Below are positions 6,494-30,509 of a DNA stretch of 64,000 nt, in pieces (the stretch's first letter is position 1; each line of letters begins with the position of its first letter). Below the pieces are notes generated by a model, which saw nothing but the letters and a program-made list of their open reading frames with translations, searched no databases and was not told the origin of the DNA. Both the position numbers and the translations under genes were made by a program. The stretch is from the NCBI GenBank assembly GCA_964410395.1, contig CAYPGS010000009.1, positions 6,038 to 70,037 on the forward strand. The letters are read 5' to 3'. This stretch comes from an uncultured bacterium. Its GTDB lineage: Bacteria; Krumholzibacteriota; Krumholzibacteriia; JACNKJ01.

Positions 6494-9382
6494 TCAGTGG
6501 ATCACCACCACTTTCCGGGACAGGGATTCCCCGTTCACCTCGAGGCGCAGGAAATAGACGCCGTTGGCGAGCAGTTCCCCCTCGGAATTCCGACCGTTCC
6601 ACCGAAGCGTGTTGCCGCCCGGCAGCGCCCATTCATGATCCAAGGTGTTCAGGCGCCGCCCGCGGGCGTCGAAGATCTCCGCCTTGATCCGATGGGTATC
6701 CCGCAGTTCGAGTGAGAACTCGATCAGTCCTTCGCCGGCGTGGAAGGGATTCGGAAATCCCTGGCTCAGTTCGACGAAGTTCGCGTCGATGGCGCTGCTG
6801 CCGGCTCCATTGTCCAAGGCGAAACGCAGAACGGACAGTCCGCTCGACCGACAGATCAGCTTTTGGCGCTCCTCATCGTAGAAGCTGAGCAGCTGCACCC
6901 GGGAGTCGCTGAAGACCTGAAGGTTTTCCGGACCCATGCCGTCGGGAAAGACGAGGTCGCCATAGTCCCACTCGATGATCGCATCCTGGGTCATCTCGAT
7001 GGCGGGCATGATCTGGTAGACGGCGAGGTCGGGTTCCGCGTCGAGTTGCACGAGCCCCAGCAAGGGGTATTCGTCCAGGCTCCCCGCCTCGAAGTCCAAT
7101 CCCAGAAGCCCGTCGACGCTGATCAGATAGGGGCTTTCCCCGATCCCGATGGGATGCAGGCCGATGTTGTCGAAGATGCAGGTCTGGTTCCCGGCGAGAT
7201 CGCTTCCGCAGGCCTGCACGGAGAAGTCCGCGGCCCCGTGCTCGTAGAGGTACTCCGACTCCCACTGCAGTCCGTCGCTCCCCGCGACTTCGTTCACTTC
7301 GAGAATGATTCCCCAGGCGTCGGCAAAGAGATTCATGTCGACCATTTCCGGATCGAGGATTTCGGAAGCTTCGAGAAGCAGGTGGACGCTCCTCTCCTCC
7401 ACACTCATGTCCAGGCTCAGTTCGGGCGGAATCACATCGGACTCGGTGAGCTGCCCGCTCACGATGAAGGCGAAGCCCTGGGGTCCCATGGGCACGTTCT
7501 CGCCAATGACGCGGAGGGTCCAGACGCCGGTATCGGGATCGGTCACCACCACGCGTTCCACCGAGTTGAGGGGATCGCGCTCGCCGCCGGGCACGCTATA
7601 GCCGTCCGAAAACCAATTGCCCCAGTACTCCTGCCCCGAGGGCGAGGTGAGATGCAGGTCGAGATCGTTGACCACCGCCGGGTTCGCGCTGACCTCGGCC
7701 GGATAGTCCGAGAAGGCCATGGTGACCTTCAGGTCCAGGGAATCGTCGCCCACGGCGAAGGTGTAGATGCGCTCCTGGCCCGTGTTCAGACCCTCGGTGT
7801 GGCGGAAGTCCTGCAGATACTGATCGATGGGCGAATCCTCGCCGAGCTTCATGCCGAGGTTCATCTGGATGCGTCCCCAGCCTTCGCGGTCGCTGGGATA
7901 ACCGCTTACGCCCAGGAGGTCGTGGGTGGAGTTGATCAGGGTGGCCCGCATGAGGGCACCGCTGGGCGTGAAGGCATCTTCTGCCATCGGCGCGCCGCTC
8001 GGATACCAACCCTCCATGAAGTACTCGCGCATGAGCGAGGCCACGCTCACGATGGACGGGCAGGCCATGCTCGTGCCGCCCGCGCCCCGTCCGCGACAGA
8101 AGTTGGGCCAGTCCTCGGGATTGCTCGTGTAGGACTGGGCCGCGGCCCAGACCGTGCGCCCGGGGGCGTAGATCTCGGGCTTGCGCCGCCCGTCGATGGT
8201 AGGTCCCGTACCGCCGTAGCCGTGTTCCTCGAAGAAATCGAGGTCCTCCTCGGTGGCGTTCATGGTGGCGCCCACGGCCAGCACGTTCTTCGCGTTCTCC
8301 GGGGAACGCAGGGTGCTGGTGTTGGTCACGGCGAAGGCGACCATGTCCTCTTCGTTCTCGTGGCTGAACTTGTCGATGTCGTGGCAGTGCTGCGTGTAGT
8401 GGGTGTACTGGTCCTGCCCCCAGGAGTTCGTGTGCAGCCGCGATCCGTGGGAATGATGGATGCCGAGCGTCTCGTAGAGGCTGAAGCCCGTCACGTTGTA
8501 GCGCGAGGTGGCGAAACGCGAACGGAAGGCCTGGCCGCGATTGGTGGTCCAGCCGTAGAGGGGCTCGATGTCCCCGGCCAGGATGCTGGCCGTGTGAAGA
8601 CCGTGGGAGCTGAAGACATTCTGTGGGTCGATGTAGACCACCTTGCGGTGATCGGGCCCCACGGGATAGGCGTCGGGATCGTGGAAGTGGCAGGTCTCCA
8701 GCTGGAACCCTGAATCGATGTGCCCGAGGATCTGCCCCTCGCCGTCAAGGCCCAGATCCCAAACGGGCGTCAGGTCGACTTCCGCCGACTGCACGATCCA
8801 GCGCACGAAATCCAGGCGATCCTGGGCCTCGCCCACCTCGCTCAGCCATCGCAGGCCGGGCAGGGTGGTCAGGTCGGCCACGCGGCTGGCCCCGGCGCGC
8901 AGGAAAACCCGCGGGCTTTCGGCCATTTCGACTACGCGCAGGATCTGCGCTCCCCGGGCCGTGGCCCGGTCGGCGAATCGCGACGCGCTCTCGCCGGGCA
9001 GAAGCATGGCGCTCATCTCCAGTACCCGTCCGCCGCGGCCATCCAGAGCCGGATCCCGGCGCCACTCGGGCCGATAGGGATGTGCGAACTCCACCCCGGG
9101 AAGGCCGCCCTCGCGGGCTCCTACATCGCCCCGAACCAGCAGGTTGTTCACGGGCAGGTAGCCCAGGATCGTGAGGCCCGCCGATTCGAGCATCCCGCGC
9201 TCGCTCTCGCCGATGCGCCCCTCGAAGTGCATCACCCAGAGCCCGTCGTCGACCTCAGGCGGCGCCAGGCGGTCCAGATCGGCCTCGGTGAAACTGCCCG
9301 TGACCAGGTGCAGGGCACCGGGATCCAGGGCCAGGGCCGGCAGGGCCAGGATGAGCAGGGCTAGGGTGAGAACAGCGCGCAT
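6494..9382 (-). CDS. secreted subtilisin-like serine protease (peptidase S8) with T9SS-type C-terminal sorting domain
   Basis: 962 aa; signal peptide MRAVLTLALLILALPALA; catalytic triad contexts GHIDSG (Asp), HGLHTASILAG (His), GGTSMACPSIVSVASL (Ser); C-terminus ...FPNPF...IFD..GRR...W.G....GE.L.NGVYFLRLEVNGESLSRKVVVIH matches Por-secretion-tail pattern. Confidence 0.85.
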   Translation of the reverse strand: MRAVLTLALLILALPALALDPGALHLVTGSFTEADLDRLAPPEVDDGLWVMHFEGRIGESERGMLESAGLTILGYLPVNNLLVRGDVGAREGGLPGVEFAHPYRPEWRRDPALDGRGGRVLEMSAMLLPGESASRFADRATARGAQILRVVEMAESPRVFLRAGASRVADLTTLPGLRWLSEVGEAQDRLDFVRWIVQSAEVDLTPVWDLGLDGEGQILGHIDSGFQLETCHFHDPDAYPVGPDHRKVVYIDPQNVFSSHGLHTASILAGDIEPLYGWTTNRGQAFRSRFATSRYNVTGFSLYETLGIHHSHGSRLHTNSWGQDQYTHYTQHCHDIDKFSHENEEDMVAFAVTNTSTLRSPENAKNVLAVGATMNATEEDLDFFEEHGYGGTGPTIDGRRKPEIYAPGRTVWAAAQSYTSNPEDWPNFCRGRGAGGTSMACPSIVSVASLMREYFMEGWYPSGAPMAEDAFTPSGALMRATLINSTHDLLGVSGYPSDREGWGRIQMNLGMKLGEDSPIDQYLQDFRHTEGLNTGQERIYTFAVGDDSLDLKVTMAFSDYPAEVSANPAVVNDLDLHLTSPSGQEYWGNWFSDGYSVPGGERDPLNSVERVVVTDPDTGVWTLRVIGENVPMGPQGFAFIVSGQLTESDVIPPELSLDMSVEERSVHLLLEASEILDPEMVDMNLFADAWGIILEVNEVAGSDGLQWESEYLYEHGAADFSVQACGSDLAGNQTCIFDNIGLHPIGIGESPYLISVDGLLGLDFEAGSLDEYPLLGLVQLDAEPDLAVYQIMPAIEMTQDAIIEWDYGDLVFPDGMGPENLQVFSDSRVQLLSFYDEERQKLICRSSGLSVLRFALDNGAGSSAIDANFVELSQGFPNPFHAGEGLIEFSLELRDTHRIKAEIFDARGRRLNTLDHEWALPGGNTLRWNGRNSEGELLANGVYFLRLEVNGESLSRKVVVIH

Positions 9383-9945: not shown

Positions 9946-13533
<3,588 letters not shown>

Positions 13534-13634: not shown

Positions 13635-13647
13635 GAAAGGAGTGACC

Positions 13648-15756
13648 ATGTACGAGTCACTGCTTTCTCCCGGCTCCATCTGCGTCATCGGCGCTTCCCA
13701 GACGCCCGGCAAGGTGGGCTACGAGATCTTCGCCAATCTGGTCGACGGCGGCTTTCAGGGAAAACTATTCCCCGTGAATCCGAAAGCCGACTCCATCCTC
13801 GGCCATGCCTGTTTTCCCGACATCTCCTTCCTTCCAGAAAGCCCCGACCTCGCGGTGATCGCGGTGCCTACGCCCGCGGTGAAGCCCGCCGTGGAGGCCA
13901 GCCACCAGAAGGGCGCCGGCGCGATCATCGTGATCACCGCGGGATTCAAGGAGACCGGTCCCGAAGGCGCGAAGCTCGAAGAGGAGATATCTCGTCTCTG
14001 TCGCGGGAAGGACGTGCCCCTCATGGGGCCCAACTGCCTCGGACTCGTGAACACGCAGCACGCCATGAACGCGTCCTTCGCCAGCCACATGCCCGAGGAA
14101 GGCGAGATCTCCGTGCTCTCGCAATCGGGCGCGTTGTGCACGGCCATCCTGGACTGGGCCGCCGGACGTCACCTGGGCCTGGCCAAGCTGGTGAGCATGG
14201 GCAACAAGGCGGGTCTGGACGAGCGCCACTTCCTTTCCGCCTTCGCCGAGGACGATGACACCAAGGTCATCGTGGGCTACCTGGAAAGCATCAGCGAGGG
14301 CGATGAGTTCATCCGCCGGGCCGAGGCCGTGGCGACGAAGAAGCCCGTGGTACTGCTCAAGGTGGGCAGCACCGAGGCCGGCGGAAAGGCGGCGAGTTCA
14401 CACACGGGTTCGCTGGCCGGAGCCGATGTGGCCTACGGCGCGGCCTTCAAGCGGGCGGGCGTGATCCGGGCGGAGAACTTCGAGCATCTCTTCGACGTGG
14501 CCACCGCCCTGGCCATGCAGCCCCTGCCCCAGGGCGACCGCGTGGCCATCATCACCAACGCGGGCGGACCCGGCATCATGGCGGCCGACGCCGTGGAGAA
14601 CGCCGGCATGACCGTGTCGAAGCTCTCCGGCGAAAGCGCCGAGGCCCTGGCCGACAAGCTTCCCGCGGCCGCCAGCGTCGCCAATCCCATCGACGTGCTG
14701 GGCGACGCCGATCCCGAGCGCTACGCCATGGCCCTGGACGTGGCCCAGGACGACGACACGGTGGACGCCATCGTCGTCATCCTCACGCCCCAGGCGATGA
14801 CCCGCCCCGCGGAGACGGCCCGGGCCATCGCCGCGCGGGTGAGGAACGAGAAGCCGGTTCTGGCGGTCTTCATGGGTGGGCGGGACGTCATGCCCGGCCG
14901 CGAGGAGCTGGTGGAGGCCAAGCTGCCCGACTACACGTCCCCCGAGCGCGCGGTGGCCGCGTTGAAGGCCATGCGCAGCTACGCCGAGTGGAGGAAGCGT
15001 CCGCCGCGCATCGTGTCGCGATTCCCCGTGAACCGGCGCCGGGTGGAGCGCATCCTCTCTCGGCAGGTTCGATCGGGACGCGTACAGGTCGGCGAAGTTC
15101 AGGCCAAGGAAATTCTGCGCGCCTACGATTTCAACGTGCCCGCCGGACAGCTCGCGACCAACGGCGATGAGGCCGTGGACATAGCCGAGCGCCTTGGGTA
15201 TCCCCTGGCCATGAAAATCGTTTCGGCGGAAATCGTGCACAAGTCGGACTTCGGCGGCGTGAAGATCGGCCTGGGTTCGGCCGATGAAGTGCGCGACGCC
15301 TTCGACCTCATGACCCTTCGCATCGGGCGGCGCATGCCCGAGGCGAAGATCGACGGGATCTACATCGAACAGATGGCGGGGCGCGGCCGCGAGGTCATCC
15401 TGGGAATGACCAGGGATCCGCAGTTCGGCCCCATGCTCATGTTCGGACTCGGCGGCATCTTCGTAGAGGTCATGAAGGACGTCACCTTCCACCTGGCCCC
15501 CATCACTCGCGATGAGGCTCTGCAGATGCTCATGGGCACGCGCTCCTACGCGCTCCTCGAGGGCGCCCGCGGACAGGGCCGCGTGGATATCGGCGCCATC
15601 GCCAAGGGCATCCAGCGCATCAGTCAGCTGGTGACCGACTTCCCGCAGATCGCCGAACTGGACATCAATCCGCTCATCGTCGGACCCGTGGGCACCGAAC
15701 CCGCCGTGGCCGACGCGAGGATCACCCTTTCCAAGGAGGGGGATGGCGATGATTGA
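13648..15756 (+). CDS. acd: acetyl-CoA synthetase (ADP-forming), fused alpha/beta subunits (acetate--CoA ligase [ADP-forming])
   Basis: ATG 13648 (MYESLLSPGSICVIGASQTPGKVGYEIF..., CoA-binding) with AAAGGAG SD; succinyl-CoA-synthetase-like and ATP-grasp regions; ORF-track start 13582 reads through the repeat element and is rejected. Confidence 0.85.
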   Translation: MYESLLSPGSICVIGASQTPGKVGYEIFANLVDGGFQGKLFPVNPKADSILGHACFPDISFLPESPDLAVIAVPTPAVKPAVEASHQKGAGAIIVITAGFKETGPEGAKLEEEISRLCRGKDVPLMGPNCLGLVNTQHAMNASFASHMPEEGEISVLSQSGALCTAILDWAAGRHLGLAKLVSMGNKAGLDERHFLSAFAEDDDTKVIVGYLESISEGDEFIRRAEAVATKKPVVLLKVGSTEAGGKAASSHTGSLAGADVAYGAAFKRAGVIRAENFEHLFDVATALAMQPLPQGDRVAIITNAGGPGIMAADAVENAGMTVSKLSGESAEALADKLPAAASVANPIDVLGDADPERYAMALDVAQDDDTVDAIVVILTPQAMTRPAETARAIAARVRNEKPVLAVFMGGRDVMPGREELVEAKLPDYTSPERAVAALKAMRSYAEWRKRPPRIVSRFPVNRRRVERILSRQVRSGRVQVGEVQAKEILRAYDFNVPAGQLATNGDEAVDIAERLGYPLAMKIVSAEIVHKSDFGGVKIGLGSADEVRDAFDLMTLRIGRRMPEAKIDGIYIEQMAGRGREVILGMTRDPQFGPMLMFGLGGIFVEVMKDVTFHLAPITRDEALQMLMGTRSYALLEGARGQGRVDIGAIAKGIQRISQLVTDFPQIAELDINPLIVGPVGTEPAVADARITLSKEGDGDD

Positions 15757-17626
15757 GGAGAAGAGCAGCATCGATCCCGCCTGGCAGGAGAAGTACGCCG
15801 ACCTGATCCTGAGCCCGAAGGAGGCGCTGGAGGGCATTCGTCCCGGACAGCGCGTCTTCGTCGGCACGGGATGCGCCCAGCCGCAGACCCTGGTCCAGGC
15901 CCTCGCGGACCGGGCCGGCGAACTGGCCGATACCGAGATCGTGCATCTGCTGACCTTCGGCGACGCGCCCTACGCGAAGAAGGAACTGGCATCGCAGTTC
16001 CGCGTGAACAGCTTCTTCATCGCCGACAACGTGCGCAGCATCATCCAGGAAGGCATGGGCGACTACACGCCCATCTTCCTGTCCGACATCCCCCGCCTCT
16101 TCAGCTCGGGACAGCTCCCTCTCGACGTGGCTCTCGTGCAGGTGACGCCGCCTGACGATCGCGGGCGCTGCAGCCTGGGCGTATCGGTGGACATCGTGAA
16201 AAGCGCCATGGCCAACGCCTCGCTGGTCATTGCCGAGGTGAATCCGCAGATGCCCCGCGTCCTGGGCAACAGCTTCGTGGACGTCTGGGATCTCGACGTC
16301 CTGGTTCCGATGGACGAGCCCGTTCTCGAACGACCTCCACGGGAGCCTGACGACCTCACCCGCAAGATCGGCGAGTACGTGGCCTCGCTGGTGGACGACG
16401 GCAGCACCCTGGAGCTCGGCATCGGGCGAATTCCCCACGCGGTGCTGGAGTTTCTCGGCGAGAAGAAGGACCTGGGCATCCACACCGAGATGCTCACCGA
16501 TGGGATCATCCCGATGATCGAATCAGGGGTGATCAATGGCAGCCGGAAGAGCCTGGACCGCGGGAAGATCGTGGCCAGCTTCTGCCTGGGCACGAAGAAG
16601 CTCTACGACTACATCGACGAGAATCCGAACATCGCCTTCCACCCCACCGAATACGTGAACGACCCCTTCGTGATCAGCCAGCAGAACAGGATGGTGGCCA
16701 TCAACGTGGCCCTCGAGGTGGATCTCACCGGACAGGTCTGCGCCGACTCCATCGGCTCGAAATTCTTCTCGGGCATCGGCGGGCAGGTCGACTTCAACCG
16801 CGGCGCCGCGCGCTCGGAGGGCGGCAAGGCCATCATCGCCATGCCCGCCACGGCACTGGCCGGCAAGAAGAGCCGCATCGTCTCGCAGCTCGCGCCGGGC
16901 GCCGGCGTGGTGACCACCCGTGGCGACGTGCACTACGTGGTAACCGAGTACGGTGTGGCCTACCTGCACGGAAAGAGCGTGCAGGACCGCGCACTGGCGC
17001 TGATCAGCATCGCCCATCCGGAGTTCCGGGCCGAGCTGCTGCGCGAGGCCATCGAGGCCAAGTACGTGAGCCCCGACAAGACGGGCGTGGAGGGACGTCT
17101 GGTGGTGGGGCCCCAGGAGCTTCGCAGCACCTACATCCTGGACGACGGAACGCCCATCGCCTTCCGGCCCATCCACCCCACCGACGAGCACAATCTGAAG
17201 GATCTCTACTACGCGCTGAGCCAGGAGACGATCTACTACCGCTTCATGCAAAATCTGAAACGGATTCCCCAGAAGCAGGTGCAGGACTTCGTCTTCATCG
17301 ACCACCGCAGCGACGTGGCCATCGTGGGCACACTGCCCGAGGCCCATGGCGAGCAGTTCGTGGCCATCGGCCGCTACTTCCTCGATCCGACTTCGAACCG
17401 GGCGGAGGTGGCCTTCGTGGTGAGGGACGAGTGGCAGAACCGGGGCATCGGCTCCTACCTGCTCAAGTCGCTCACGACCATCGCGCGGCGAAACGGTATC
17501 GGTGGTTTCACTGCGGAAGTGCTCAAGCAGAATCGCGCCATGCAGTCGGTCTTCAACAACAGCGGACTCAAGGTGAAGAGCCACCTCAAGGGCGAGGTCT
17601 GGCACTTCGATCTGGAGTTCAATTAA
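15743..17626 (+). CDS. acetyl-CoA hydrolase/transferase-family (4-hydroxybutyrate CoA-transferase-like) domain fused to C-terminal GNAT acetyltransferase domain
   Basis: 627 aa; overlaps acd stop by 14 nt; CoA-transferase signatures ...LELGIGRIPHAVL..., ...FFSGIGGQVDFNRGAARSEGGKAIIAMPAT...; C-terminal ~180 aa has GNAT motif A (WQNRGIGSYLLKSL). Confidence 0.7.
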   Translation: MAMIEEKSSIDPAWQEKYADLILSPKEALEGIRPGQRVFVGTGCAQPQTLVQALADRAGELADTEIVHLLTFGDAPYAKKELASQFRVNSFFIADNVRSIIQEGMGDYTPIFLSDIPRLFSSGQLPLDVALVQVTPPDDRGRCSLGVSVDIVKSAMANASLVIAEVNPQMPRVLGNSFVDVWDLDVLVPMDEPVLERPPREPDDLTRKIGEYVASLVDDGSTLELGIGRIPHAVLEFLGEKKDLGIHTEMLTDGIIPMIESGVINGSRKSLDRGKIVASFCLGTKKLYDYIDENPNIAFHPTEYVNDPFVISQQNRMVAINVALEVDLTGQVCADSIGSKFFSGIGGQVDFNRGAARSEGGKAIIAMPATALAGKKSRIVSQLAPGAGVVTTRGDVHYVVTEYGVAYLHGKSVQDRALALISIAHPEFRAELLREAIEAKYVSPDKTGVEGRLVVGPQELRSTYILDDGTPIAFRPIHPTDEHNLKDLYYALSQETIYYRFMQNLKRIPQKQVQDFVFIDHRSDVAIVGTLPEAHGEQFVAIGRYFLDPTSNRAEVAFVVRDEWQNRGIGSYLLKSLTTIARRNGIGGFTAEVLKQNRAMQSVFNNSGLKVKSHLKGEVWHFDLEFN

Positions 17627-17710
17627 CTTCAACTTGAACTCGAAATGAACTCCCCACCCCCATCCAACCGGTGGGGGTTCCTTCTTGTTCAAGTTCACGT
17701 TCAAGTTCAC
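17627..17710. promoter_or_regulatory. repeat-rich intergenic region: inverted GTTCAAGTT copy (17627-17639), hairpin CCCCCA-9nt-TGGGGG + T-rich tail (17657-17690, possible terminator of upstream operon), tandem GTTCAAGTTCAC x2 (17687-17710)
   Basis: All repeats read directly; lies upstream of first Cys-rich paralogue. Confidence 0.45.
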
Positions 17711-17777
17711 GTTTCTCATGATTCCGGTTCGCTTCTTGCAATTCCTCCAGCGGCACGCAATCACTGGAGGAGAATCA

Positions 17778-18356
17778 ATGCGCAAAGTACTGCTAACACT
17801 GGCACTTATGAGTATCGCCACCGTCGGCCTGGCCGATCCGGTGATCGGAATCTTTGCAGACGAGAACATGGTTTCTTGCGATACTGCCCTGATTCCTTAC
17901 GCCCCCACCATGCTCTACGTGATCGCCTACTGGACCACCGGTCCTCTGGATGACGGCATCACCGCCGCCGAGTTCAGGCTCGACGGGTTGCCCCAGAACG
18001 ACGGGTATCCCCTGGGTCAGGTCACGGTCAACCATACGACGGATCTGGTCATCGGTAACATCTGGCATGACTACTCCGCCGCCTGGTCGAATCCTCAGGG
18101 CGCGGGCGTGAGTCAGTTCACCATCTGCAGCATCGAGATTCTCATGTTCGACGCCGGCTGGGTCGGCCCGGACACCGAAGTCACCGTCTCCGCAGGATTT
18201 GACTGTGACTGCCTGGTTCTCGTGGACTCCTTCTTCGACGTGCACACCGCCGCCGGAGGGCTGTTCACCCTGAACTGTTCCGAGCCTCCCTGCGATTGCT
18301 TCCCGCCGGTCGCTACCGAGAGCACCAGCTGGAGCAATGTGAAGTCGCTTTTCTAG
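17778..18356 (+). CDS. secreted Cys-rich hypothetical protein, paralogue 1 (unknown family)
   Basis: ATG 17778 with GGAGG SD 7 nt upstream; signal peptide MRKVLLTLALMSIATVGLA; conserved blocks shared with paralogue 2: DGYPxGxVTVNHTTDLVIGxIWxDYSAAW, FTICSIE, CxCLxLVD, NCSxPPCDCFPP, TSWSxVKxLF. Confidence 0.6.
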   Translation: MRKVLLTLALMSIATVGLADPVIGIFADENMVSCDTALIPYAPTMLYVIAYWTTGPLDDGITAAEFRLDGLPQNDGYPLGQVTVNHTTDLVIGNIWHDYSAAWSNPQGAGVSQFTICSIEILMFDAGWVGPDTEVTVSAGFDCDCLVLVDSFFDVHTAAGGLFTLNCSEPPCDCFPPVATESTSWSNVKSLF

Positions 18357-18501
18357 AACGTTGCGTTTTCATTGGTTGTTTGAGGCCCCCGGCTCTTCGC
18401 CGGGGGTTTTCTAGTAATAATACTTGTCGCATTTCGTCGGCAACACTAGCCTGACACCAAACCCCTCACTGCCGCCCGGAAACTCAAACGGGAGGCAAGT
18501 G

Positions 18502-19077
18502 ATGCAAAAGACCAGTGCGATCATTGCGATTCTGTTGTTTGCGGTAAGCGCTCATGCAATGCCTGTCATCGGAGTCTTCGCCGATGAGGTGCCTTACATT
18601 TGCTACGCGGATGTGACTCCCTACGTACCTCTTACGCTCTACGTCGTCTCCTATTGGGAACCCGGAGAAATGGGCGCCGGAGTGACGGCCGCGGAGTTCA
18701 AAATCGCGAATTTCCCGACGAATGACGGCTACCCAAGCGGAACAGTGACCGTGAATCACACGACCGACTTGGTCATAGGCGATATCTGGACTGACTACTC
18801 AGCAGCATGGAACATCCCGCAAGATGAGGGAAACAAGTTCACGATCTGCAGTATCGAAGTTCTCCCATTCGATGCAGCCTGGATTCCAGGACAGCTGACC
18901 GTACTCGTCACCGAAGGTGACGATTGCTCGTGCCTGCTTTTGGTGGATGACATCTTCGAAATCGTCCCCGCTCGCGGAGGGCAGTTCACTTTCAACTGCT
19001 CGAATCCGCCCTGTGATTGTTTCCCGCCCACATCCACTCGCGATACCAGCTGGAGCAGCGTGAAGGCGCTGTTCTAG
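18502..19077 (+). CDS. secreted Cys-rich hypothetical protein, paralogue 2 (about 60% identical to paralogue 1 by eye), lower G+C
   Basis: ATG 18502 with GGGAGG SD; signal peptide MQKTSAIIAILLFAVSAHA; same six conserved Cys; ORF-track starts 17685/18424 are upstream extensions. Confidence 0.6.
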   Translation: MQKTSAIIAILLFAVSAHAMPVIGVFADEVPYICYADVTPYVPLTLYVVSYWEPGEMGAGVTAAEFKIANFPTNDGYPSGTVTVNHTTDLVIGDIWTDYSAAWNIPQDEGNKFTICSIEVLPFDAAWIPGQLTVLVTEGDDCSCLLLVDDIFEIVPARGGQFTFNCSNPPCDCFPPTSTRDTSWSSVKALF

Positions 19078-19147: not shown

Positions 19148-21328
19148 CTACTTCAGAAGTAGCAGCTTCCGCTGCTGGCTCATTTCACCCGCAGCCAAGC
19201 GCGCGAAGTACAGCCCCGAGGGCAACTCGCGCCCGGTCGCGTCGCGACCGTCCCATGTATACACGTGTACACCCGCCTCGAGGTCTGTACCCGGGTGCAG
19301 TTCCCGCACCTGGCGTCCCATCGAATCGAAGATCGCGAGCCGGACCGGCCCGCGCTCAGGCAGCGCGAAACGAATCTGCGTGCTCGGATTGAAGGGGTTC
19401 GGCCAGTTGCTCAGGCGAAGCGCTGTGGCGGCATCGGCCACATCCGAGGCCGGATCGAAGAAGACCCAGATGGGATTGGTATAGGCCCTATGCCCGGCAT
19501 GGCCGTCCTGGGTGAGCAGTTCGGCGCGGAGCATGCGCCAGCCGTCCAGGCCCAGGCCGCCCACATCGAACTCGGCCGTGCCCTCGTAGGGCTGGCCGCC
19601 TTGGGCGGGGTTGAAGCTGTGCAGCACGGCGGTCCCGTTCGCGTCGCCGATAATGAGCTTCACCGACACGGCGTGTCCGAACTCGGGCAGGGTCTTCCAG
19701 CGGAAACGAAGGGGGCGGTAGCCGCTGGCAGGCGCGGATCCGTCATCGCCGATGACGAGGTCGCCGGCACCGTACCAGGAGCCGTCGGCGTCCACATCGA
19801 GGCCGATCTCCAGGAAGGGACCATCAGTGATCACGCTGCGACCCGCGCGATAGGCTTCGAGCAGCAGCTCCATGGGCGGCAGATTTCCCGGCCCCCACTC
19901 GCCGGGCACGTGCACCACGGTCTGCACCTTCCCCATGGCGTTGTCGGTGGCGTAGTTGTCCAGGCTGATGTACGTGGCGAAGTTGAAGTCGCCGTGGGCA
20001 TCGCTGCCGCCGGCGAGGAAGCACTTCCTCTGAAATCCCGCGGCGAGGTCGGCGGCCAGCAGCTCGTCCCAGAGATCGATGCCCGCCAGCAGCTCGCTCG
20101 GATAGGGATCATCCGCCGGCACGCCCGCGTCGAAGTCGCTCCAGGGATCGTACTGGTCGGCGGAGTACAGGGTCTCGCGGGTGTTGAAGGCCTGCAGGCC
20201 ACGGAAGGCCGAGTAGCCCAGGGCGGCTGAAATGTCTGCATCGCCCCAGCGCGCGCCGTTCACGCCCCAGTCCAGCCCGCCCCACTCGGCCCCGAGATCG
20301 CTCAGGGGATGGGCCGCGTAGGCGAAACCTTCCGGCGACAGCGCCGCCAGGCCCTCGGTGACGCTCAGGTCCACCGGCCGTTCGCCGATGGCGCCGCTAT
20401 TGGGCGAGTGGATGTAGTCGTCATTGTAGAAAAGCCCGTGCAGGGTCTTCTGCCAGGAATCCGAATCCACGGAAGCCAGGTTGATCTCGACCCCGCGATA
20501 CAATCTGAAATCCGGCGAGTCCAGCTCGGCCACGTCGGCTCCGAGCCCGCCCCAGGATGAACCGTGGGCGAAGACGTCGCGATAGTGCGGCGTGATGCCC
20601 GAGGGCGTCTGCATGGTCCACTCCCACCAGTGGGTGGCGTAGCTGAAGGGGCCGTCGCCGGTCTCGTCCAGGTCGCAGCTGTGGTCGGTGGCGGTGAGCC
20701 AGTGCAGGCCCATGGCCTTGGCGGCCTCGGCCACGGCGGGAAGCGGCATGCCGAATTCGGCGATGTTGTTGGTGTACATGGTGTGATAGTGAACGTCGCC
20801 GCCGAACCAGTCCTCCGGCCAGGGAAAGGGTCCGCTGCCCACGTGGATGCGAAGCGCCCGCTCCTCGGTGTAGTTGAACCAGTCGTCCTTGTAGTAGATC
20901 TCCACGAACCAATTGATTTTGTCGCCCTCGCTGTAGCCAAGGTTCGCGGGCGTCAGCAGCGTGCCGTTCGGGAGCCAGCTGTGGTTCTCGGTGACGGTGG
21001 TGATCCAGGTCCAGTAGTTGTCCTCGCTGGCGTCGTCGCCGATCTCCTCGTCGCCGAAGTCGTGGCGCCAGACCTGGGCGCCGGTGTTCGTGTCGGTGCA
21101 GCGGATCCAGTGCAGCTCGCGGATGTCGTCCTCGTCGCAGTCCTTCAGCAGGATGGCGAGCGGGATGACCGTATTGGCGTCGATGACCCGCCAGGGCGCA
21201 TCCATGATGAAGTCCTTGGCCAGGGTGTTGTCGTAGCGGTCGGCGTTCTCCCAGGGCCAGGGGCTGGGTGGCTCAATGTGGGCGAAGGCCACGGAGGTAA
21301 AGAGAAGTAGAGCAAAGGCAAGGCGCAT
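19148..21328 (-). CDS. secreted protein with putative PHP-like metal-dependent phosphoesterase region and T9SS-type C-terminal sorting domain
   Basis: 726 aa; signal peptide MRLAFALLLFTSVAFA; GGDVHYHTMYTNN ... WLTATDHSCDLD resemble PHP-domain metal-binding motifs (tentative); C-terminus SNWPNPFNPSTQIRFALPERGPVRLAIFDSMGRQV...GVHVYTWDGRDATGRELPSGLYFARLAAGEMSQQRKLLLLK matches Por-secretion-tail pattern. Confidence 0.6.
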   Translation of the reverse strand: MRLAFALLLFTSVAFAHIEPPSPWPWENADRYDNTLAKDFIMDAPWRVIDANTVIPLAILLKDCDEDDIRELHWIRCTDTNTGAQVWRHDFGDEEIGDDASEDNYWTWITTVTENHSWLPNGTLLTPANLGYSEGDKINWFVEIYYKDDWFNYTEERALRIHVGSGPFPWPEDWFGGDVHYHTMYTNNIAEFGMPLPAVAEAAKAMGLHWLTATDHSCDLDETGDGPFSYATHWWEWTMQTPSGITPHYRDVFAHGSSWGGLGADVAELDSPDFRLYRGVEINLASVDSDSWQKTLHGLFYNDDYIHSPNSGAIGERPVDLSVTEGLAALSPEGFAYAAHPLSDLGAEWGGLDWGVNGARWGDADISAALGYSAFRGLQAFNTRETLYSADQYDPWSDFDAGVPADDPYPSELLAGIDLWDELLAADLAAGFQRKCFLAGGSDAHGDFNFATYISLDNYATDNAMGKVQTVVHVPGEWGPGNLPPMELLLEAYRAGRSVITDGPFLEIGLDVDADGSWYGAGDLVIGDDGSAPASGYRPLRFRWKTLPEFGHAVSVKLIIGDANGTAVLHSFNPAQGGQPYEGTAEFDVGGLGLDGWRMLRAELLTQDGHAGHRAYTNPIWVFFDPASDVADAATALRLSNWPNPFNPSTQIRFALPERGPVRLAIFDSMGRQVRELHPGTDLEAGVHVYTWDGRDATGRELPSGLYFARLAAGEMSQQRKLLLLK

Positions 21329-25584: not shown

Positions 25585-25613
25585 CCCGGGTCCTGAGGGC
25601 CCGGGTTTTTTTT
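25585..25613 (+). terminator. rho-independent terminator (CCCGGG...CCCGGG + T8)
   Basis: aaaaaaCCCGGGtcctgagggCCCGGGtttttttt; marks left edge of lower-GC island. Confidence 0.8.
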
Positions 25614-25645
25614 GCTTGGATCGTCGCACCCTTTCCCGTGTAGGA

Positions 25646-25663
25646 TAAGAGATGTATCTCTTA
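25646..25663. promoter_or_regulatory. inverted repeat TAAGAGAT-GT-ATCTCTTA upstream of VWA gene (candidate regulator binding site)
   Basis: 8-bp arms exact reverse complements, 2-bp spacer; AT-rich region 25620-25758. Confidence 0.35.
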
Positions 25664-25758
25664 CAATCTTCTTACATGGATCTGACCATCATTTTCTTAG
25701 TAAGACGTAGACTCATGACGATGAATCCTGTGGATTTTCTAGAAGGAGGGCCAACGTC

Positions 25759-27084
25759 ATGAGTGGAAGAATCAAACGAATGAACCTATCCATCCTCGTT
25801 TTCGCATTACTGTTCTGGCAGAGTCCGGAAACGGCAAAGGCCAGGATGATCGACTTGAGTGTGGCGGTCGACAAGCCCATCGTTCTTCGGAATGAGAGTC
25901 AGGTCGCATACTTAAGGGTCGGGCTGACCGGATTCCCGATGCACGACCTACAGAATCGCAGCCCCTTGAATGTGGCAATCGTGCTCGACAAGTCGGGTTC
26001 GATGCAGGGAGAGAAGATCGAACGGGCAAAAGAAGCTGCGATCATGGCGATCCATCGTCTTGACTCAAGGGACATCGTGTCGATCATCGCCTACGACGAA
26101 ACCGTCGAAGTCGTTGTTCCGGCCACGAAAGCTTCAGACATCGAAGCCATCAGCGCTGCGATTCGCGCAATCCAGGCGCGCGGCAACACAGCCCTTTTTG
26201 CCGGAGTCAGTAAGGGCGCGGCTGAAGTGCGGAAGTTCCTCAGCAAGAATCATGTGAACCGTATTGTGCTCCTTTCAGATGGAGTAGCGAATGTGGGTTT
26301 GAGCTCGCCTTCTGACCTCGGCGCTCTGGGGTCAATTCTTGCGGACGAGGGCATGTCTGTTACGACCATCGGCCTCGGACTGGGATACAACGAAGACCTG
26401 CTAAGCGAACTCGCGACAAGAAGTGACGGGTATCACTATTTCGCTGAGGGATTGGAGGATCTCTCCCAGATGTTCGACCAGGAGTTCGGCAAGGCACTGT
26501 CCTTAGTCGCACAGGGAATTGAAATCCGCATTCGATGCGCCCCCGGTGTCATCCCGCGCCGCATCCTAGGCAAGTCAGCCACGATCGATGGCTCTGATGT
26601 GAGGATTTCCCTCAACAACCTATTCAGCGAGAGCGAGCGGCGGATCGTTTTGGAGGTAGAGTTGTCTCCCGAAATGCTTCGGGATCCGGATGTCGAGATT
26701 GCCGCCATTGACGTAGACTATGACAACCTTCTTACTCGCTCGCGAGATCATCTAGATCGTAAGCTGAGCATCGAAACAACTCTATCGAGAGCTGATGTCG
26801 ATGCGAACATCAATTCGCGTGTAATGGTCGACGTAGTCAAGATCCTTGCGGTGGAGCAGAACATGCAGGCTTCGCTACTTAGAGACCAGGGACGCATTGC
26901 CGAAGCGCTTGAGCTTCTTCTTAGGAACGCAGACTTCCTCGCCGAGAACGCCCTTCGTTTCAATTCCCAGGATCTCCAGGCATACTCACTGCAGCAGGAG
27001 ATCGACGCCCAGAACTTGGACGACACAAACTGGGATCGCCAACGCAAGGAAATGGAGTTCAACGCTGTGAAAGCCCTTTACTAG
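25759..27084 (+). CDS. secreted von Willebrand factor type A (VWA) domain protein
   Basis: 441 aa; SD AGGAGGG; signal peptide ...LVFALLFWQSPETAKA; MIDAS DxSxS in VAIVLDKSGSM; lower G+C than flanks. Confidence 0.75.
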   Translation: MSGRIKRMNLSILVFALLFWQSPETAKARMIDLSVAVDKPIVLRNESQVAYLRVGLTGFPMHDLQNRSPLNVAIVLDKSGSMQGEKIERAKEAAIMAIHRLDSRDIVSIIAYDETVEVVVPATKASDIEAISAAIRAIQARGNTALFAGVSKGAAEVRKFLSKNHVNRIVLLSDGVANVGLSSPSDLGALGSILADEGMSVTTIGLGLGYNEDLLSELATRSDGYHYFAEGLEDLSQMFDQEFGKALSLVAQGIEIRIRCAPGVIPRRILGKSATIDGSDVRISLNNLFSESERRIVLEVELSPEMLRDPDVEIAAIDVDYDNLLTRSRDHLDRKLSIETTLSRADVDANINSRVMVDVVKILAVEQNMQASLLRDQGRIAEALELLLRNADFLAENALRFNSQDLQAYSLQQEIDAQNLDDTNWDRQRKEMEFNAVKALY

Positions 27085-27116
27085 GCTGAACGACACGATT
27101 CTCGATCGGAATCTGA

Positions 27117-28685
27117 ATGAAACCGAAGCTCTCTATTCTGCTTGCTCTACTGATTCTCCTTCCCGCGATTCTCGTCACGATCCTGGGAATCAGGCTCGCC
27201 TATCATGAGCAAGAGCAGACGAGGTTGCGATTCGAGCATCTACACCTCGAACACCTGGGCGATGTTGACAATGGCATCGTCCAGGTTACTTCTCGATGGG
27301 AAACTGAGCTTCTCCAGGCATTATCTGTTTCCGATGTCAACGCTATGACCCTGAAGAACCTGTCCCGCAATCATGCTCGTATCAGACAGGCATTTCTGCT
27401 TGATCCTCAGGGCAAGCTCATCTACCCCCTTCCCAGCGAACATGCAAGTTCCTCGGAGCTGGACTTTCTAGATGGGGCAAGCGAACTGATCCTTAGGAAA
27501 GAGTTGGTTGCCCTTCCTGGAACAGAAGCATCCGCCGTCCCTCAGGGGTGGTACTCCTGGTATTGGGGCAGGGATATCCGGACACTTTTTTGGCTACATA
27601 CAAGTGAAGGACAAATCCTCGGAGCCGAGATCGAGACTGTATTGCTTGTCTCTGACATCATCAATGCATTGCCCGTCACGCAAACAAGTTCGGAGTCAGA
27701 TTTATCGACCGGGCTCTTAGATCGTACCCGCCTGCTGAACTCTAGAGGTGAGATCATTTATCAATGGGGGCGACTGGAGGTACCCGAGGATACTTCGCCG
27801 GCCTCACGAATCCAGCTCTCCCGACCACTTTCGGCTTGGAGCCTGGAGCTCTATCGTAGCGACGGTGCCGGATCGATCGCTGGCCGAGGCGTCCTGATGA
27901 CCATCATTGCGAGTTCCTTGGCCCTTGCGCTGGTCTTTGTCGGCTTCGGCATCTTCCTTTACCGGGAAAACTCCCGCGAGCTACGTGAGTCCGCCCGGCG
28001 AGTCAGCTTCGTCAATCAGGTCTCCCATGAGCTGAAGACCCCACTCACGAATATCCGCCTCTACGCCGAACTCCTAGACCGCCGGATCGACGAGGACGAT
28101 TCCCAGGCCCGTGGATATGCTGGTATTATCGTTTCGGAAAGTCGCAGGCTTAGCCGACTCATTGGCAATGTCCTCAGTCTTGGCCGACAGCGGGAAAAGA
28201 GGCTTACTCTCCATCGAAGGGCGGGGTGCATTGACAGTGTGATCGAAGGGGTACTCGAACAATTCCGACCTGCCCTGAGGACCTCAGGAATCGCGGTTCT
28301 TACTGATCTTCAGGCTATCGGAAATGTCTCCCTGGATGCCGATTTACTCGAGCAGGTCCTGGGAAATCTGATCAGCAATGTAGAAAAGTACGCCGCTTCA
28401 GGTGAGCAGCTGGCGATTGCAAGTCGTCAGCGTGATGGAGTCACGACCCTTACGGTTGAGGATCGCGGCCCAGGCATTCCAGACAGTGAGAAAGCTCGAG
28501 TGTTCGAGCCCTTCTACCGAATCAACACGAGCCTTGTCGAGGGAGTGTCCGGGACTGGTATCGGACTTTCCATCGCTCGTGATTTGGCCCGTCTGCACGG
28601 AGGAGATCTGAAGCTGATGCCAAGCGAGATGGGGGCGAAGTTCGAGCTGACTCTGTTCACTCCTGATATGAATCTGGGAGAATGA
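27117..28685 (+). CDS. sensor histidine kinase (two TM segments flanking a periplasmic domain; HisKA + HATPase_c)
   Basis: 522 aa; H-box SHELKTPLTNIRLYAELL; G-boxes GTGIGLSIARDLARLHGGDL. Confidence 0.85.
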   Translation: MKPKLSILLALLILLPAILVTILGIRLAYHEQEQTRLRFEHLHLEHLGDVDNGIVQVTSRWETELLQALSVSDVNAMTLKNLSRNHARIRQAFLLDPQGKLIYPLPSEHASSSELDFLDGASELILRKELVALPGTEASAVPQGWYSWYWGRDIRTLFWLHTSEGQILGAEIETVLLVSDIINALPVTQTSSESDLSTGLLDRTRLLNSRGEIIYQWGRLEVPEDTSPASRIQLSRPLSAWSLELYRSDGAGSIAGRGVLMTIIASSLALALVFVGFGIFLYRENSRELRESARRVSFVNQVSHELKTPLTNIRLYAELLDRRIDEDDSQARGYAGIIVSESRRLSRLIGNVLSLGRQREKRLTLHRRAGCIDSVIEGVLEQFRPALRTSGIAVLTDLQAIGNVSLDADLLEQVLGNLISNVEKYAASGEQLAIASRQRDGVTTLTVEDRGPGIPDSEKARVFEPFYRINTSLVEGVSGTGIGLSIARDLARLHGGDLKLMPSEMGAKFELTLFTPDMNLGE

Positions 28686-29374
28686 CCATGAGAATACTCA
28701 TCGCCGAGGACGACATGAACATCCGCAACGCCCTGGCGAAAATCTTTCGGGAGGAAGGCTACGAAACTCTGCTCGCGTCAACCGGGTCTGAAGCATTGCT
28801 GCTTTTCGAGACGGAAAAGCCGGATCTGGTCTGCCTGGACATCATGATGCCGAGTGTGAATGGCTATGATGTTTGCCGCGAAATTCGAAGGAAGGGTTCA
28901 AATGTTCCGGTCATCTTCATCAGCGCAAAGTCCGAGGAAATCGACAAGGTGCTTGGCCTGGAGTTGGGTGCCGATGATTTCATCGTGAAGCCATTCGGAC
29001 TTCGGGAAGTGATCGCCCGCGTTCGGGCCGTAAGTCGACGCTATCGCCTGGGCCCCTCTCTCGGCAAGGACCCTGCGCCTTTCCACATGGGCTCCCTTGA
29101 GGTCGCTCCCGCCGAGCTGAGAGCCTACCGAGATGGCCAGAGTATCGAACTCAGCCAGCGTGACATGGATATCCTCAAGATCCTTCATGATCAGCAAGGA
29201 CGGGTCGTCGATCGAGTAACATTGTTCCGGATAGCCTGGGGCCTGGACCACATTCCCACTAGCCGTACTTTGGACCAGCACATTTCCCAGTTAAGGAAGC
29301 GAATCGAGTTGGATCCGAAGAACCCGACTCTAATCAAGACGGTGCATGGAGTAGGCTATCGCTTTGAAGGCTGA
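28682..29374 (+). CDS. OmpR/PhoB-family response regulator (receiver + winged-helix)
   Basis: 230 aa; overlaps HK stop by 4 nt; receiver ILIAEDD...LDIMMP...; C-terminal ...TVHGVGYRFEG. Confidence 0.85.
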   Translation: MTMRILIAEDDMNIRNALAKIFREEGYETLLASTGSEALLLFETEKPDLVCLDIMMPSVNGYDVCREIRRKGSNVPVIFISAKSEEIDKVLGLELGADDFIVKPFGLREVIARVRAVSRRYRLGPSLGKDPAPFHMGSLEVAPAELRAYRDGQSIELSQRDMDILKILHDQQGRVVDRVTLFRIAWGLDHIPTSRTLDQHISQLRKRIELDPKNPTLIKTVHGVGYRFEG

Positions 29375-29381
29375 GAGCAGT

Positions 29382-30509
29382 TCAAAGGTGCTGGCTGCTC
29401 ATGACGCGAATCGTCATACCTGATTTGCGCAAGTCGTAGGGTTTCCTCACGTTGGGGCAGACTAGCAGGTTCTCACCCTCGGGATATGCCTCCCGGAAAA
29501 CGGAGAGCGCTCTCGCATCGAATGCATCGGGATTGACCTTCACCTCAATCGCGTCGACGGCCTTTCCCTTGGCCTTGACCACGAAGTCGATCTCTCGCTG
29601 ACTCTTGTCCCTCCAATAGTGGATGGCTTGACCAGGACGCGATACGCGCAGCTCGTCCAGCACCAGATGCTCCCAGAGCTGCCCCCTGTCCCCATCCCGC
29701 AGAGACTCCCATCCCCGGACATGAGCGACCAAACCCGTATCGAAGGCATAGACCTTGGGTTGACGGATTATCTCGCGATGCCCGCCGCCATGGAATGGCG
29801 GCACGCGGGTCAGCGCGTGCGCGATTTCCATCGCCTCCAGATGAGCCATCACAGTTTGACGACTCAAGCCGCTTTCCTTGGCGAGATCGCTGATCTCGAG
29901 CTGCCCCCCACTGCGGTGACAGACCAGGCGCAGGAGCTTTAGAAAACCACTTCGGTTACGCACACTGAACAGCTCCTGGATGTCTCTCGCAAAGAAACTG
30001 TCCATCCATTCTTCGAAGAAGCTTGGGTCGGGAGCGTCCGCGAGCAGCAATTCAGGAAAACCGCCGTGGAGGAGCCGCTTGTCGAAATCAGGCGGTCCGA
30101 ACTCGCCCTGGCACTCTCTCCAAAGCACCGGGGTCAACTGAACCGTATGCTTGCGGCCGCTGAGGCTGTCGCGGAATTTACTCGTCGCCTGCAAGGTCGA
30201 CGAGCCCGTGGCCAGTACCTTCAAGTGCGGGAACTCATCGGCAGCGATTTTCAGAACCGAGCTCGGATCCGCGATCCGATGAACCTCATCGAGGATCACG
30301 GGCCTGCCACCCGGCTGGCTCGAGAGGAAGAACTCGGGATCCTCCAATCGCCTCTGAGTTGAGGGGAGATCGCAGTTGAAGTAGATCGCCTCGGAAATCT
30401 GCTTGCACAGTGTGGTCTTTCCCACCCGGCGAGCGCCGGAGAGCCAGACGATGCTTCGCTTCTCCCAAAGGGCGTGGATTCGTTCGACCCATTGACTGCG
30501 TCTTTTCAT
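29382..30509 (-). CDS. AAA+ superfamily ATPase (COG1373-like, DUF4143-type)
   Basis: 375 aa; Walker A GARRVGKTT; Walker B VILDEVH; convergent with RR gene (7-bp gap). Confidence 0.65.
   Translation of the reverse strand: MKRRSQWVERIHALWEKRSIVWLSGARRVGKTTLCKQISEAIYFNCDLPSTQRRLEDPEFFLSSQPGGRPVILDEVHRIADPSSVLKIAADEFPHLKVLATGSSTLQATSKFRDSLSGRKHTVQLTPVLWRECQGEFGPPDFDKRLLHGGFPELLLADAPDPSFFEEWMDSFFARDIQELFSVRNRSGFLKLLRLVCHRSGGQLEISDLAKESGLSRQTVMAHLEAMEIAHALTRVPPFHGGGHREIIRQPKVYAFDTGLVAHVRGWESLRDGDRGQLWEHLVLDELRVSRPGQAIHYWRDKSQREIDFVVKAKGKAVDAIEVKVNPDAFDARALSVFREAYPEGENLLVCPNVRKPYDLRKSGMTIRVMSSQHL

Follow-up and report, generated by a model that had tools for sequence, protein, structure and literature searches.

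Protein acetyltransferases of the GNAT family are sorted by the domain that accompanies the catalytic module: types I and II have a nucleoside-diphosphate (NDP)-forming synthetase-like domain, type III a cAMP, ACT or NADP+ domain, and types IV and V none (PMC8556138, PatZ preprint). In the type I enzyme PatZ, E809 is catalytic, and the protein is inactive without its acetyl-CoA-binding partner domain (PatZ preprint). Among the Acu proteins, AcuA forms complexes with its synthetase target, AcuC belongs to the class I protein deacetylases (PMC11532494), and AcuB senses adenine nucleotides and inhibits AcuC (PMC13121692). In Thermus, the free-standing CoA-transferase TtCoAT uses acetyl-CoA as CoA donor for various short-chain fatty acids, is required when the organism grows on butyrate, and is the main target of a GNAT lysine acetyltransferase (KAT), with a Zn-dependent deacetylase reversing the mark; acetylation alone left its activity unchanged, and its Lys5 is, according to the authors, limited to Thermus (bioRxiv 10.1101/2025.10.31.685773). 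A CoA-transferase partner is not listed in the type I-V classifications (PMC8556138, PatZ preprint), the acetyltransferase reviews and Acu papers make no mention of ADP-forming synthetases, and in the open-access literature we found no equivalent system for the ADP-forming synthetases through which many anaerobes and archaea gain ATP from acetyl-CoA. Here we compare these systems with a gene from a 64,000-nucleotide stretch of DNA (the window) of an uncultured Krumholzibacteriota bacterium (GenBank assembly GCA_964410395.1, contig CAYPGS010000009.1). The gene (15743..17626, plus strand) encodes a CoA-transferase fused to a GNAT domain and overlaps the end of a gene for an ADP-forming acyl-CoA synthetase (ACD).

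With moderate confidence, we read the fusion product as a bifunctional protein that combines a competent short-chain acyl-CoA:acetate CoA-transferase (residues ~18-440) with a Pat-type KAT (residues ~461-627) and forms a two-gene module with a live ACD at the acetyl-CoA/acetate/ATP node. This node is probably under reversible protein acetylation. Both enzyme activities, the acetylation target and the direction of regulation are deduced from homology and gene context. The ACD would interconvert acetyl-CoA, ADP and Pi with acetate, ATP and CoA, and the CoA-transferase would move CoA between acetate and other short-chain acids, so that the two enzymes would share one acetyl-CoA pool. The GNAT domain would use the same acetyl-CoA to acetylate lysines on enzymes of the node, tuning flux to the size of the pool. 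The CoA-transferase domain may double as an acyl-CoA-binding, scaffolding partner of the GNAT, as the pseudo-ACD does in Pat. In many other genomes, the mark would be reversed by a Zn deacetylase of the AcuC type, in some cases together with an AcuB energy sensor.

The fusion open reading frame (ORF) is uninterrupted from ATG 15743 and encodes 627 aa, as first described, with the predicted acetyl-CoA hydrolase/transferase region and C-terminal GNAT represented by three Pfam domains above their gathering scores. The ACD reading frame ends at 15756 (stop codon 15754-15756), and the 14-nt overlap given in the original prediction is correct for a start at 15743. A second in-frame ATG lies at 15749. 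The sequence AAGGAGG (15733..15739, plus strand), which resembles a Shine-Dalgarno site and sits inside the 3' end of the ACD gene, precedes the first ATG by 3 nt and the second by 9 nt. Because of this spacing, an exact 625-aa database entry (P0287) and the starts of close relatives at the same ATG, the true start is probably ATG 15749, giving 625 aa and an 8-nt overlap with the ACD gene (ATGATTGA). The identical 625-aa sequence occurs on 9 contigs, a database search returned at least 8000 homologues with the same uninterrupted layout of ~625 aa, and at least 600 species-representative genomes from independent assemblies carry it, a recurrence that goes far beyond chance. The original prediction had named an assembly or frameshift artefact joining two genes as one danger to its claim and a database search for the same fusion as a check; with these matches, an artefact is practically ruled out.

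The N-terminal half falls within the 4-hydroxybutyrate-CoA-transferase/TtCoAT subfamily of class I CoA-transferases and is apparently active. The module (15830..17050, plus strand; aa 30-436) consists of an AcetylCoA_hydro domain (aa 30-180, 6e-26, 92.1 bits against a Pfam cut-off of 24) and an AcetylCoA_hyd_C domain (aa 283-436, 3.5e-66, 222.3 bits against 23.7). Over residues ~18-442 it shares ~60% identity with Thermus thermophilus TtCoAT (PDB 9vag, 1.6e-140). An AlphaFold2 model of the fusion protein (mean predicted local distance difference test score, pLDDT, 78) matched the Shewanella 4-hydroxybutyrate CoA-transferase 2oas in Foldseek with a template-modelling score (TM, target) of 0.94, a root-mean-square deviation of 2.2 Å and an E value of 6e-49, and 3gk7 with a TM of 0.89. 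The probable catalytic glutamate, Glu249 (codon 16487..16489, plus strand), lies in the motif GIHTEM, which aligns with HTEM/HTEL of 9vag, 3eh7 and 2oas; by homology with class I CoA-transferases, we take it to be the nucleophile. We followed conservation in two family alignments, A1 and A2 (15 and 65 members), and in a diverse set of 72 fusions at 47-71% identity. Glu249 is invariant in both alignments and kept in 72 of the 72 diverse fusions. The GxGGQxDF loop of class I CoA-transferases is present as GIGGQVDF (G344-F351, codons 16772..16795, plus strand) and is invariant or nearly so. The flexible loop that the TtCoAT study (bioRxiv 10.1101/2025.10.31.685773) calls G(V/I)G corresponds to G226-I227-G228 and is invariant in A1 and A2.

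The same residues bear on a different reading, in which the CoA-transferase module of the window protein has no catalytic function and, as an acetyl-CoA sensor comparable to the pseudo-ACD of Pat, serves regulation of the GNAT only. PatZ provides a precedent, since a CoA-binding partner domain can gate a Pat GNAT, and non-catalytic scaffolds of this kind do exist in the wider family: the catalytic glutamate is gone from 11 of 30 cluster representatives, and the oxyanion loop from more, with the GNAT motifs kept. However, in the subfamily to which the window protein belongs, every catalytic signature is unchanged from phylum to phylum, and an active enzyme shares ~60% identity; mere ligand binding would not be expected to preserve the signatures so well. 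We therefore give this reading a slim chance for the window protein; the comparison with a Pat-like dead sensor made in the original prediction does not hold here, and the sensor-only state applies to divergent lineages only.

Other features of the N-terminal half and the model are recorded here as observations. A conserved segment, (Y)DPxWQEKY, with D11 and W14 invariant, covers aa 11-18 (nt ~15773-15796) and precedes the region alignable with TtCoAT. Its Lys17 is partly conserved and lies three residues upstream of the position matching the acetylated Lys5 of TtCoAT. Two segments of the model have pLDDT below 50: aa 335-346 (nt ~16745-16780), running into the GxGGQxDF loop, and aa 502-520 (nt ~17246-17302), between GNAT helices alpha1 and alpha2. 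These segments may be mobile elements. In other Pat enzymes, the region between alpha1 and alpha2 adds to substrate binding.

By its sequence, the C-terminal half is a GNAT of the Pat clade. The domain (17123..17623, plus strand; aa ~461-627) is matched by Pfam Acetyltransf_1 (aa 528-604, 5e-8, above the gathering score) and by Acetyltransf_3, also above its cut-off. Its top matches among solved structures were SlPatA (4nxy, 1e-18), Mycobacterium tuberculosis Pat (MtPat, 4ava, 4e-16), enterobacterial Pat/PatZ (9isq/9it0, 5e-15), MsPat (4orf) and Sulfolobus Pat (3f8k), and small-molecule GNATs appeared only at E values of 0.003 or worse. Glu555 (codon 17405..17407, plus strand), within AEVAF, is the equivalent of the glutamate in the AEIAF motif (ending at residue 243) of M. 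tuberculosis Pat in the 4ava alignment; it is invariant in A1 and A2 and kept in 69 of the 72 diverse fusions. The acetyl-CoA-binding motif A (Q/R-x-x-G-x-G/A), noted at the outset as QNRGIGSYLL, spans aa 565-574, with its core QNRGIG (Q565-G570) encoded at 17435..17452 on the plus strand; Q565 is kept in 71 and G570 in 70 of the 72 fusions. In the model, the secondary structure follows the canonical beta-alpha-alpha-beta-beta-beta-alpha-beta-alpha-beta-beta order (pLDDT 82-88). The domain search and structure prediction that the original prediction had proposed thus returned an Acetyltransf_1 match and a canonical GNAT fold with Glu555 and motif A in place, and the Pat-clade relatives with their conserved motifs sharpen its assignment. 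The two halves are joined by a linker (17051..17122, plus strand; aa ~437-460) with a conserved sequence that can be aligned to the stretch ahead of the GNAT in enterobacterial Pat; its pLDDT is below 50, with the low stretch at aa 446-458. In a phmmer comparison, fusion residues 442-616 aligned to Pat residues 690-866.

The same GNAT subtype is fused to other partners elsewhere. It occurs with ACD-like domains in type II order, and in P0217 (598 aa) it is fused N-terminally to acetate kinase. It follows a 4Fe-4S ferredoxin and a degenerate CoA-transferase in P0173 (960 aa), stands in front of an ArAE-type exporter domain in P0245 (546 aa), and is followed by ~420 unassigned residues in P0259 (965 aa). 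The ACD-like, acetate kinase and ferredoxin-CoA-transferase partners are enzymes of the acetyl-CoA/acetate node. The architectures of P0217, P0173, P0245 and P0259 appear to have gone undescribed so far.

The gene immediately upstream (13645..15756, plus strand) encodes an ACD of the fused alpha-beta type, 703 aa from the probable ATG at 13645. Its longest ORF begins at GTG 13582, and homologues align from residue 2 of the 13645 start. The Pfam set is complete (CoA_binding_2, Succ_CoA_lig, Ligase_CoA_2 and ATP-grasp_5), and the best solved relative is the ADP-forming 4-hydroxybutyrate-CoA ligase 8wzu (2e-157). TIGR02717 scored 564.2 against 567.15, just below its cut-off. In alignments, the motif AASSHTGSLAG places its His253 on the phosphohistidine His254alpha of 4xyl, the Korarchaeum ACD; the motif also matches the active Nitrosopumilus ligase and falls in a gap in enterobacterial Pat. 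A second histidine lies in IVHKSD, in the ATP-grasp part. Among the partner ACDs, 40 of 41 keep both catalytic histidines. On these residues, the partner ACD is predicted to be a catalytically live enzyme.

The fusion is widespread. The homologues were found in a word-indexed search; among the best 120 of the at least 8000 matches, lengths were ~620-630 aa, and 119 had the same three domains (the remaining one, P0115, was without a precomputed GNAT match). Identity of these 120 to the window protein was 69-92%, mostly ~70%, with P0056 at 63%, and the named sources included Planctomycetota, Verrucomicrobia, Deltaproteobacteria, Chloroflexi and Bradymonadales. The at least 600 species-representative genomes that carry the fusion cover many bacterial phyla and several archaeal lineages. 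For neighbourhood counts, we retained 80 loci from these genomes, and 78 of the loci were used for neighbour clustering. The 80 loci also include Lentisphaerae, Kiritimatiellae, Myxococcota, Desulfobulbaceae, Hydrogenedentota, Acidobacteriota, Fibrobacterota, Deinococcota, Spirochaetota, Elusimicrobia and Gemmatimonadota, and archaeal carriers from Thorarchaeota, Bathyarchaeia, Thermoplasmata and Crenarchaeota. In databases, the protein is named only 'GNAT family N-acetyltransferase' or 'acyl-CoA hydrolase/GNAT'. Such names hide a probable regulator; in fermentative and syntrophic carbon flow, it would be an additional point at which acetate and ATP yield are controlled.

Gene order ties the fusion to the ACD. 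An ACD gene was found by tblastn in 51 of the 80 loci, spanning more than 10 phyla: it was immediately upstream on the same strand in 47, downstream in two and divergent in two. In the 40 closest loci, it was upstream in 39, and the last one has no upstream DNA. Of 34 measurable junctions between the two genes, 13 overlap and a further 12 lie within 30 nt. The link between ACD and fusion is thus stronger than the original prediction could see, as it is conserved across phyla and, as described below, outlives the loss of CoA-transferase catalysis. Between distant phyla (e.g. Planctomycetota, Verrucomicrobiota, Desulfobacterota and Deinococcota), identity is 60-70% for the fusion as well as for its ACD partner, an unusually high figure that points to horizontal transfer of the two genes as one module, to very strong constraint, or to both. 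In a metagenome-assembled genome of Candidatus Thorarchaeota (L066, 8648-12422), a pair of full-length CoA-transferase/GNAT paralogues in tandem (51% and 47% identity to the window protein) adjoins divergently oriented genes for an MFS transporter and an acetyl-CoA synthetase of the AMP-forming type (Acs); no ACD gene lies in the flanks.

The original prediction had the fusion coupled to both the ACD gene and the gene for pyruvate:ferredoxin oxidoreductase (PFOR) upstream of it. The PFOR gene (9946..13533, plus strand; 1195 aa; TIGR02176 1843 bits against a cut-off of 911, plus Pfam domains) is the first of the probable local transcription unit. It ends ~111 nt before the ACD start on the same strand and is therefore co-directional and probably co-transcribed with it, without translational coupling. 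No terminator-like site was found between the PFOR, ACD and fusion genes; one follows the fusion, a hairpin (17656-17678) with a T-rich tail (together 17656..17688, plus strand; 9-bp stem with 6 G-C pairs, 30 nt past the stop codon), identified by consensus match only. The three genes probably form one transcript in the window, ending at this hairpin. The overlap with the ACD gene stands, and translational coupling is confined to the ACD and fusion genes, PFOR excluded. The proposed tie to the pyruvate branch was not borne out: PFOR was found within 10 kb in 0 of the 80 related loci and recurs only in relatives of ~92% identity (e.g. L081) that share the whole local synteny of the window. PFOR is accordingly rejected as part of a conserved system, and the conserved unit is the ACD followed by the CoA-transferase/GNAT fusion, PFOR not included.

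Lineages that have lost CoA-transferase catalysis help separate the roles of the two halves. We searched with the GNAT region alone against 1.84 billion cluster representatives and obtained 49 clusters at E <=1e-30 and 4044 at <=1e-10. Among 30 CoA-transferase/GNAT cluster representatives, the catalytic glutamate is replaced by C, Q, A, S, D or P in the 11 already mentioned and the GxGG loop is disrupted in more, whereas the A(E/D)xAF signature of the GNAT is kept, as is Q/RxxGxG/A in most of the 30. Because catalytic residues have been lost and GNAT motifs kept in these divergent lineages, the degenerate scaffold must serve the GNAT in a non-catalytic way, as the pseudo-ACD does in Pat. Two such proteins still lie behind an ACD with both histidines, P0126 (Glu to Ala, loop deleted) 3 nt and P0125 0 nt downstream of it; a third degenerate protein that we checked, P0210, does not lie behind an ACD. 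The position of P0126 and P0125 behind live ACDs makes the ACD-GNAT link independent of CoA-transferase chemistry. The family thus runs from an active partner enzyme to a decayed pseudo-enzyme, which makes the origin of Pat-type regulatory domains directly testable.

Genes of protein acetylation recur around the fusion. Four neighbouring ORFs on each side, called by a simple longest-ORF heuristic, were clustered without bias in the 78 loci. A Hist_deacetyl protein (class I HDAC/AcuC-like) occurs within four genes in 24 of the 78, in 10 of them directly downstream on the same strand; the deacetylase neighbour matches Hist_deacetyl at 3e-81, and its closest structures are the class I enzymes HDAC8, HDAC2 and Rpd3 (~7e-65). 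A CBS-pair protein in 6 of the 78 loci aligns over its full length with the AcuB structures 9s4w (3e-24), 9s4v and 9qs7. The NCBIfam models for AcuC and AcuB gave no match to these neighbours, and we relied on comparison with PDB sequences instead. From the neighbours in Desulfobulbaceae, the gene order is acuC-acuB-acd-fusion, an acu-type arrangement with the ACD in the place of AcsA. The recurrence of AcuC-type deacetylases and AcuB homologues supports a role in protein acetylation.

The same neighbours limit a purely metabolic reading, in which the substrate of the GNAT is a small molecule, such as an amine or amino acid, in a pathway that the CoA-transferase feeds, and the HDAC-like neighbours are the matching amidohydrolases. 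It is established that the two families do include small-molecule acetyltransferases and amidohydrolases. However, the significant solved relatives of the GNAT are all protein lysine acetyltransferases, the deacetylases encoded nearby most resemble protein deacetylases of class I, the class of AcuC, and AcuB homologues accompany them. We consider this reading highly improbable.

If the fusion modifies proteins, the partner ACD is the most likely target, with AMP-forming Acs and the CoA-transferase itself as alternatives; we rank the ACD first because of the near-obligate, overlapping gene pair. The case for Acs supposes that the co-translated acetyltransferase switches Acs off while the ACD route runs, averting an ATP-burning ACD/Acs cycle. 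AMP-forming acyl-CoA synthetases are the best-established substrates of Pat-clade GNATs, and AcuC and AcuB are known Acs-regulating partners in Bacilli. Acs genes, usually with an MFS transporter gene (7 of the 78 loci), adjoin the ACD-fusion pair in 7 of the 78, and the canonical acceptor motif PKTRSGKIMRR was among the first P-x4-GK matches in 4 of these 7. However, Acs is adjacent in those 7 loci only, against 51 for the ACD, the window has no Acs, and regulation of Acs would leave unexplained both the retained CoA-transferase scaffold and the strict ACD adjacency in degenerate lineages. We think this alternative possible but unlikely.

It is also conceivable, although distinctly unlikely in our judgement, that the CoA-transferase regulates itself, the GNAT acetylating the CoA-transferase of its own chain or of its dimer partner. 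The fusion would then be the Rosetta stone of the separate Thermus KAT (TT_C1711) and TtCoAT, and the ACD a mere metabolic neighbour. An enzyme fused to its modifier is a classic Rosetta-stone pattern, the T. thermophilus homologue of the N-terminal half is the dominant KAT substrate there, with a Zn-dependent deacetylase reversing the mark, and HDAC genes are enriched near the fusion. On the other side, the Thermus acceptor Lys5, reported to be limited to that genus, is D20 here, TtCoAT activity was unchanged by acetylation itself, and the Rosetta-stone argument is incomplete without the GNAT type of TT_C1711. Regulation of CoA-transferase activity as the only purpose is also hard to square with the lineages in which that enzyme is dead but the GNAT and the neighbouring ACD persist.

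Several observations weigh against the bifunctional, ACD-directed reading that we prefer. The open-access papers searched contain no report on this architecture or on acetylation of an ADP-forming ACD. The PX4GK motif by which Pat recognizes Acs is absent from the window ACD and from the fusion, and is not conserved in their relatives. No conserved lysine of the ACD is partner-specific: nine lysines conserved at >=80% also occur in unrelated ACDs or Pat and were set aside as uninformative. Transfer of the Thermus acceptor sites failed as well, since besides the Lys5 position, Lys357 aligns with a variable loop (L372), leaving no conserved acceptor lysine. Two curated family models scored below their cut-offs: TIGR03948, the butyryl-CoA:acetate CoA-transferase equivalog, gave 303.1 bits against 674.8, and we did not file the N-terminal half under that name; NF058543, the mycobacterial Pat equivalog, gave 87-91 bits (6e-26) against 460 and covered profile positions 133-273 only. 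The AlphaFold2 model offers no confident interdomain arrangement (predicted TM, pTM, 0.65, with the linker pLDDT given above). About one third of the loci have neither an ACD nor an HDAC gene nearby, and the 64-kb window holds no deacetylase, AcuB or Acs homologue. In other respects, the window copy is an ordinary family member, its only local peculiarities being the PFOR neighbour and the lack of a nearby deacetylase.

Further features of the window lie outside the module. Directly downstream are two tandem paralogous ORFs (17685-18356 and 18424-19077, plus strand), 55% identical, ~200 aa long and with no hit in Pfam or NCBIfam; since the syntenic relative L081 carries only one copy, of 192 aa and with 76% identity to the first ORF, the pair is a local duplication in the window. 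A block of ~5 kb (~25608-30644) has a G+C content of 0.54-0.56 against ~0.63, encodes a VWA-domain protein, a histidine kinase and an OmpR-type response regulator, with an AAA_14/DUF4143 ATPase on the opposite strand, and is missing from the otherwise collinear L081; it looks like a small insertion. A 962-aa S8 subtilase (6494-9382, minus strand) and a 726-aa CehA/McbA-like metallohydrolase (19148-21328, minus strand) both end in FlgD_ig / Por_Secre_tail-type domains, which suggests type IX secretion and an FCB-like organism.

A more far-reaching proposal, which we offer tentatively and regard as unlikely as it stands, is that the ACD and the fusion form a hetero-complex, a 'live, split Pat', with the ACD as ATP-producing trans partner, in the place that a dead cis domain takes in Pat, and the GNAT gating substrate-level phosphorylation by acetylating it. 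Such a complex might be ancestral to type I/II Pat through loss of the CoA-transferase and of the ACD histidines. It would also give the ADP-forming acetyl-CoA synthetases of bacteria and archaea, Asgard lineages included, a post-translational switch, the first to be described for them.

Among the closest described systems is enterobacterial Pat/PatZ (YfiQ, type I; PDB 9isq and 9it0). In both, a Pat-type GNAT is tied to an acetyl-CoA-binding partner, and the linker and GNAT of the fusion are homologous to the C-terminal part of Pat, including the catalytic glutamate and motif A. Pat residues 7-701 are matched by the ACD over its entire length (4e-107), and since linker and GNAT cover residues 690-866, the ACD and the fusion together span the whole of Pat. 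The idea of a split Pat, with an ACD-like protein and a GNAT as neighbours, was thus well placed in the original prediction. Unlike in Pat, the ACD is here a separate protein with catalytic histidines where Pat has a gap, a complete and apparently active CoA-transferase is interposed and carries the GNAT in cis, and neither window protein contains the PX4GK substrate motif of Pat. The type II SlPatA (4nxy) and type III MtPat/MsPat (4ava, 4orf) are the closest solved GNATs, with AEVAF in the fusion against AEVAF/AEIAF and QNRGIG against QGRGVA/QGRGIG. Their partner domains differ: either a pseudo-ACD follows the GNAT or a cAMP-binding domain precedes it, whereas the fusion has no cyclic-nucleotide (cNMP), ACT or NADP domain.

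The acsA-acuABC system of B. subtilis likewise places a synthetase beside an acetyltransferase, a deacetylase and a sensor, a layout matched by the AcuC-like flanks in 24 of 78 loci and by the Desulfobulbaceae gene order. Here, however, the synthetase is an ADP-forming ACD and not an AMP-forming enzyme, a Pat-type GNAT fused to a CoA-transferase replaces the stand-alone AcuA, and the window has neither AcuB nor AcuC. The Thermus system of TtCoAT (TT_C1083), the KAT TT_C1711 and the deacetylase TT_C0104 contains the closest characterised homologue of the N-terminal half, an active, broad-range short-chain acyl-CoA:acetate CoA-transferase that is reversibly acetylated. It differs in that the KAT is separate, the NAD+-sensing alanine-dehydrogenase-like partner that mediates regulation there is absent here, the acceptor Lys5 is not conserved, and no ACD linkage is described there.

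At the metabolic level, the module resembles the cycle of acetate:succinate CoA-transferase (ASCT) and succinyl-CoA synthetase (SCS), described in PMC12817287, which serves substrate-level phosphorylation and in which a CoA-transferase and an ADP-forming synthetase also share one acyl-CoA intermediate. A shared intermediate would let several acyl-CoAs yield ATP through acetyl-CoA. The pairing here is of a 4-hydroxybutyrate-type CoA-transferase with an ACD instead of ASCT with SCS, and the ASCT/SCS cycle has no acetyltransferase domain. Metabolic coupling of this kind also fails to explain why lineages with a dead CoA-transferase keep the ACD adjacency. Because the components are all of known kinds and the sequences are already in databases, the system is not categorically new, yet the combination falls outside the type I-V classification: the fusion fits no recognised Pat partner-domain type, as its partner in cis is a CoA-transferase and the ACD-like protein is encoded by a separate gene.

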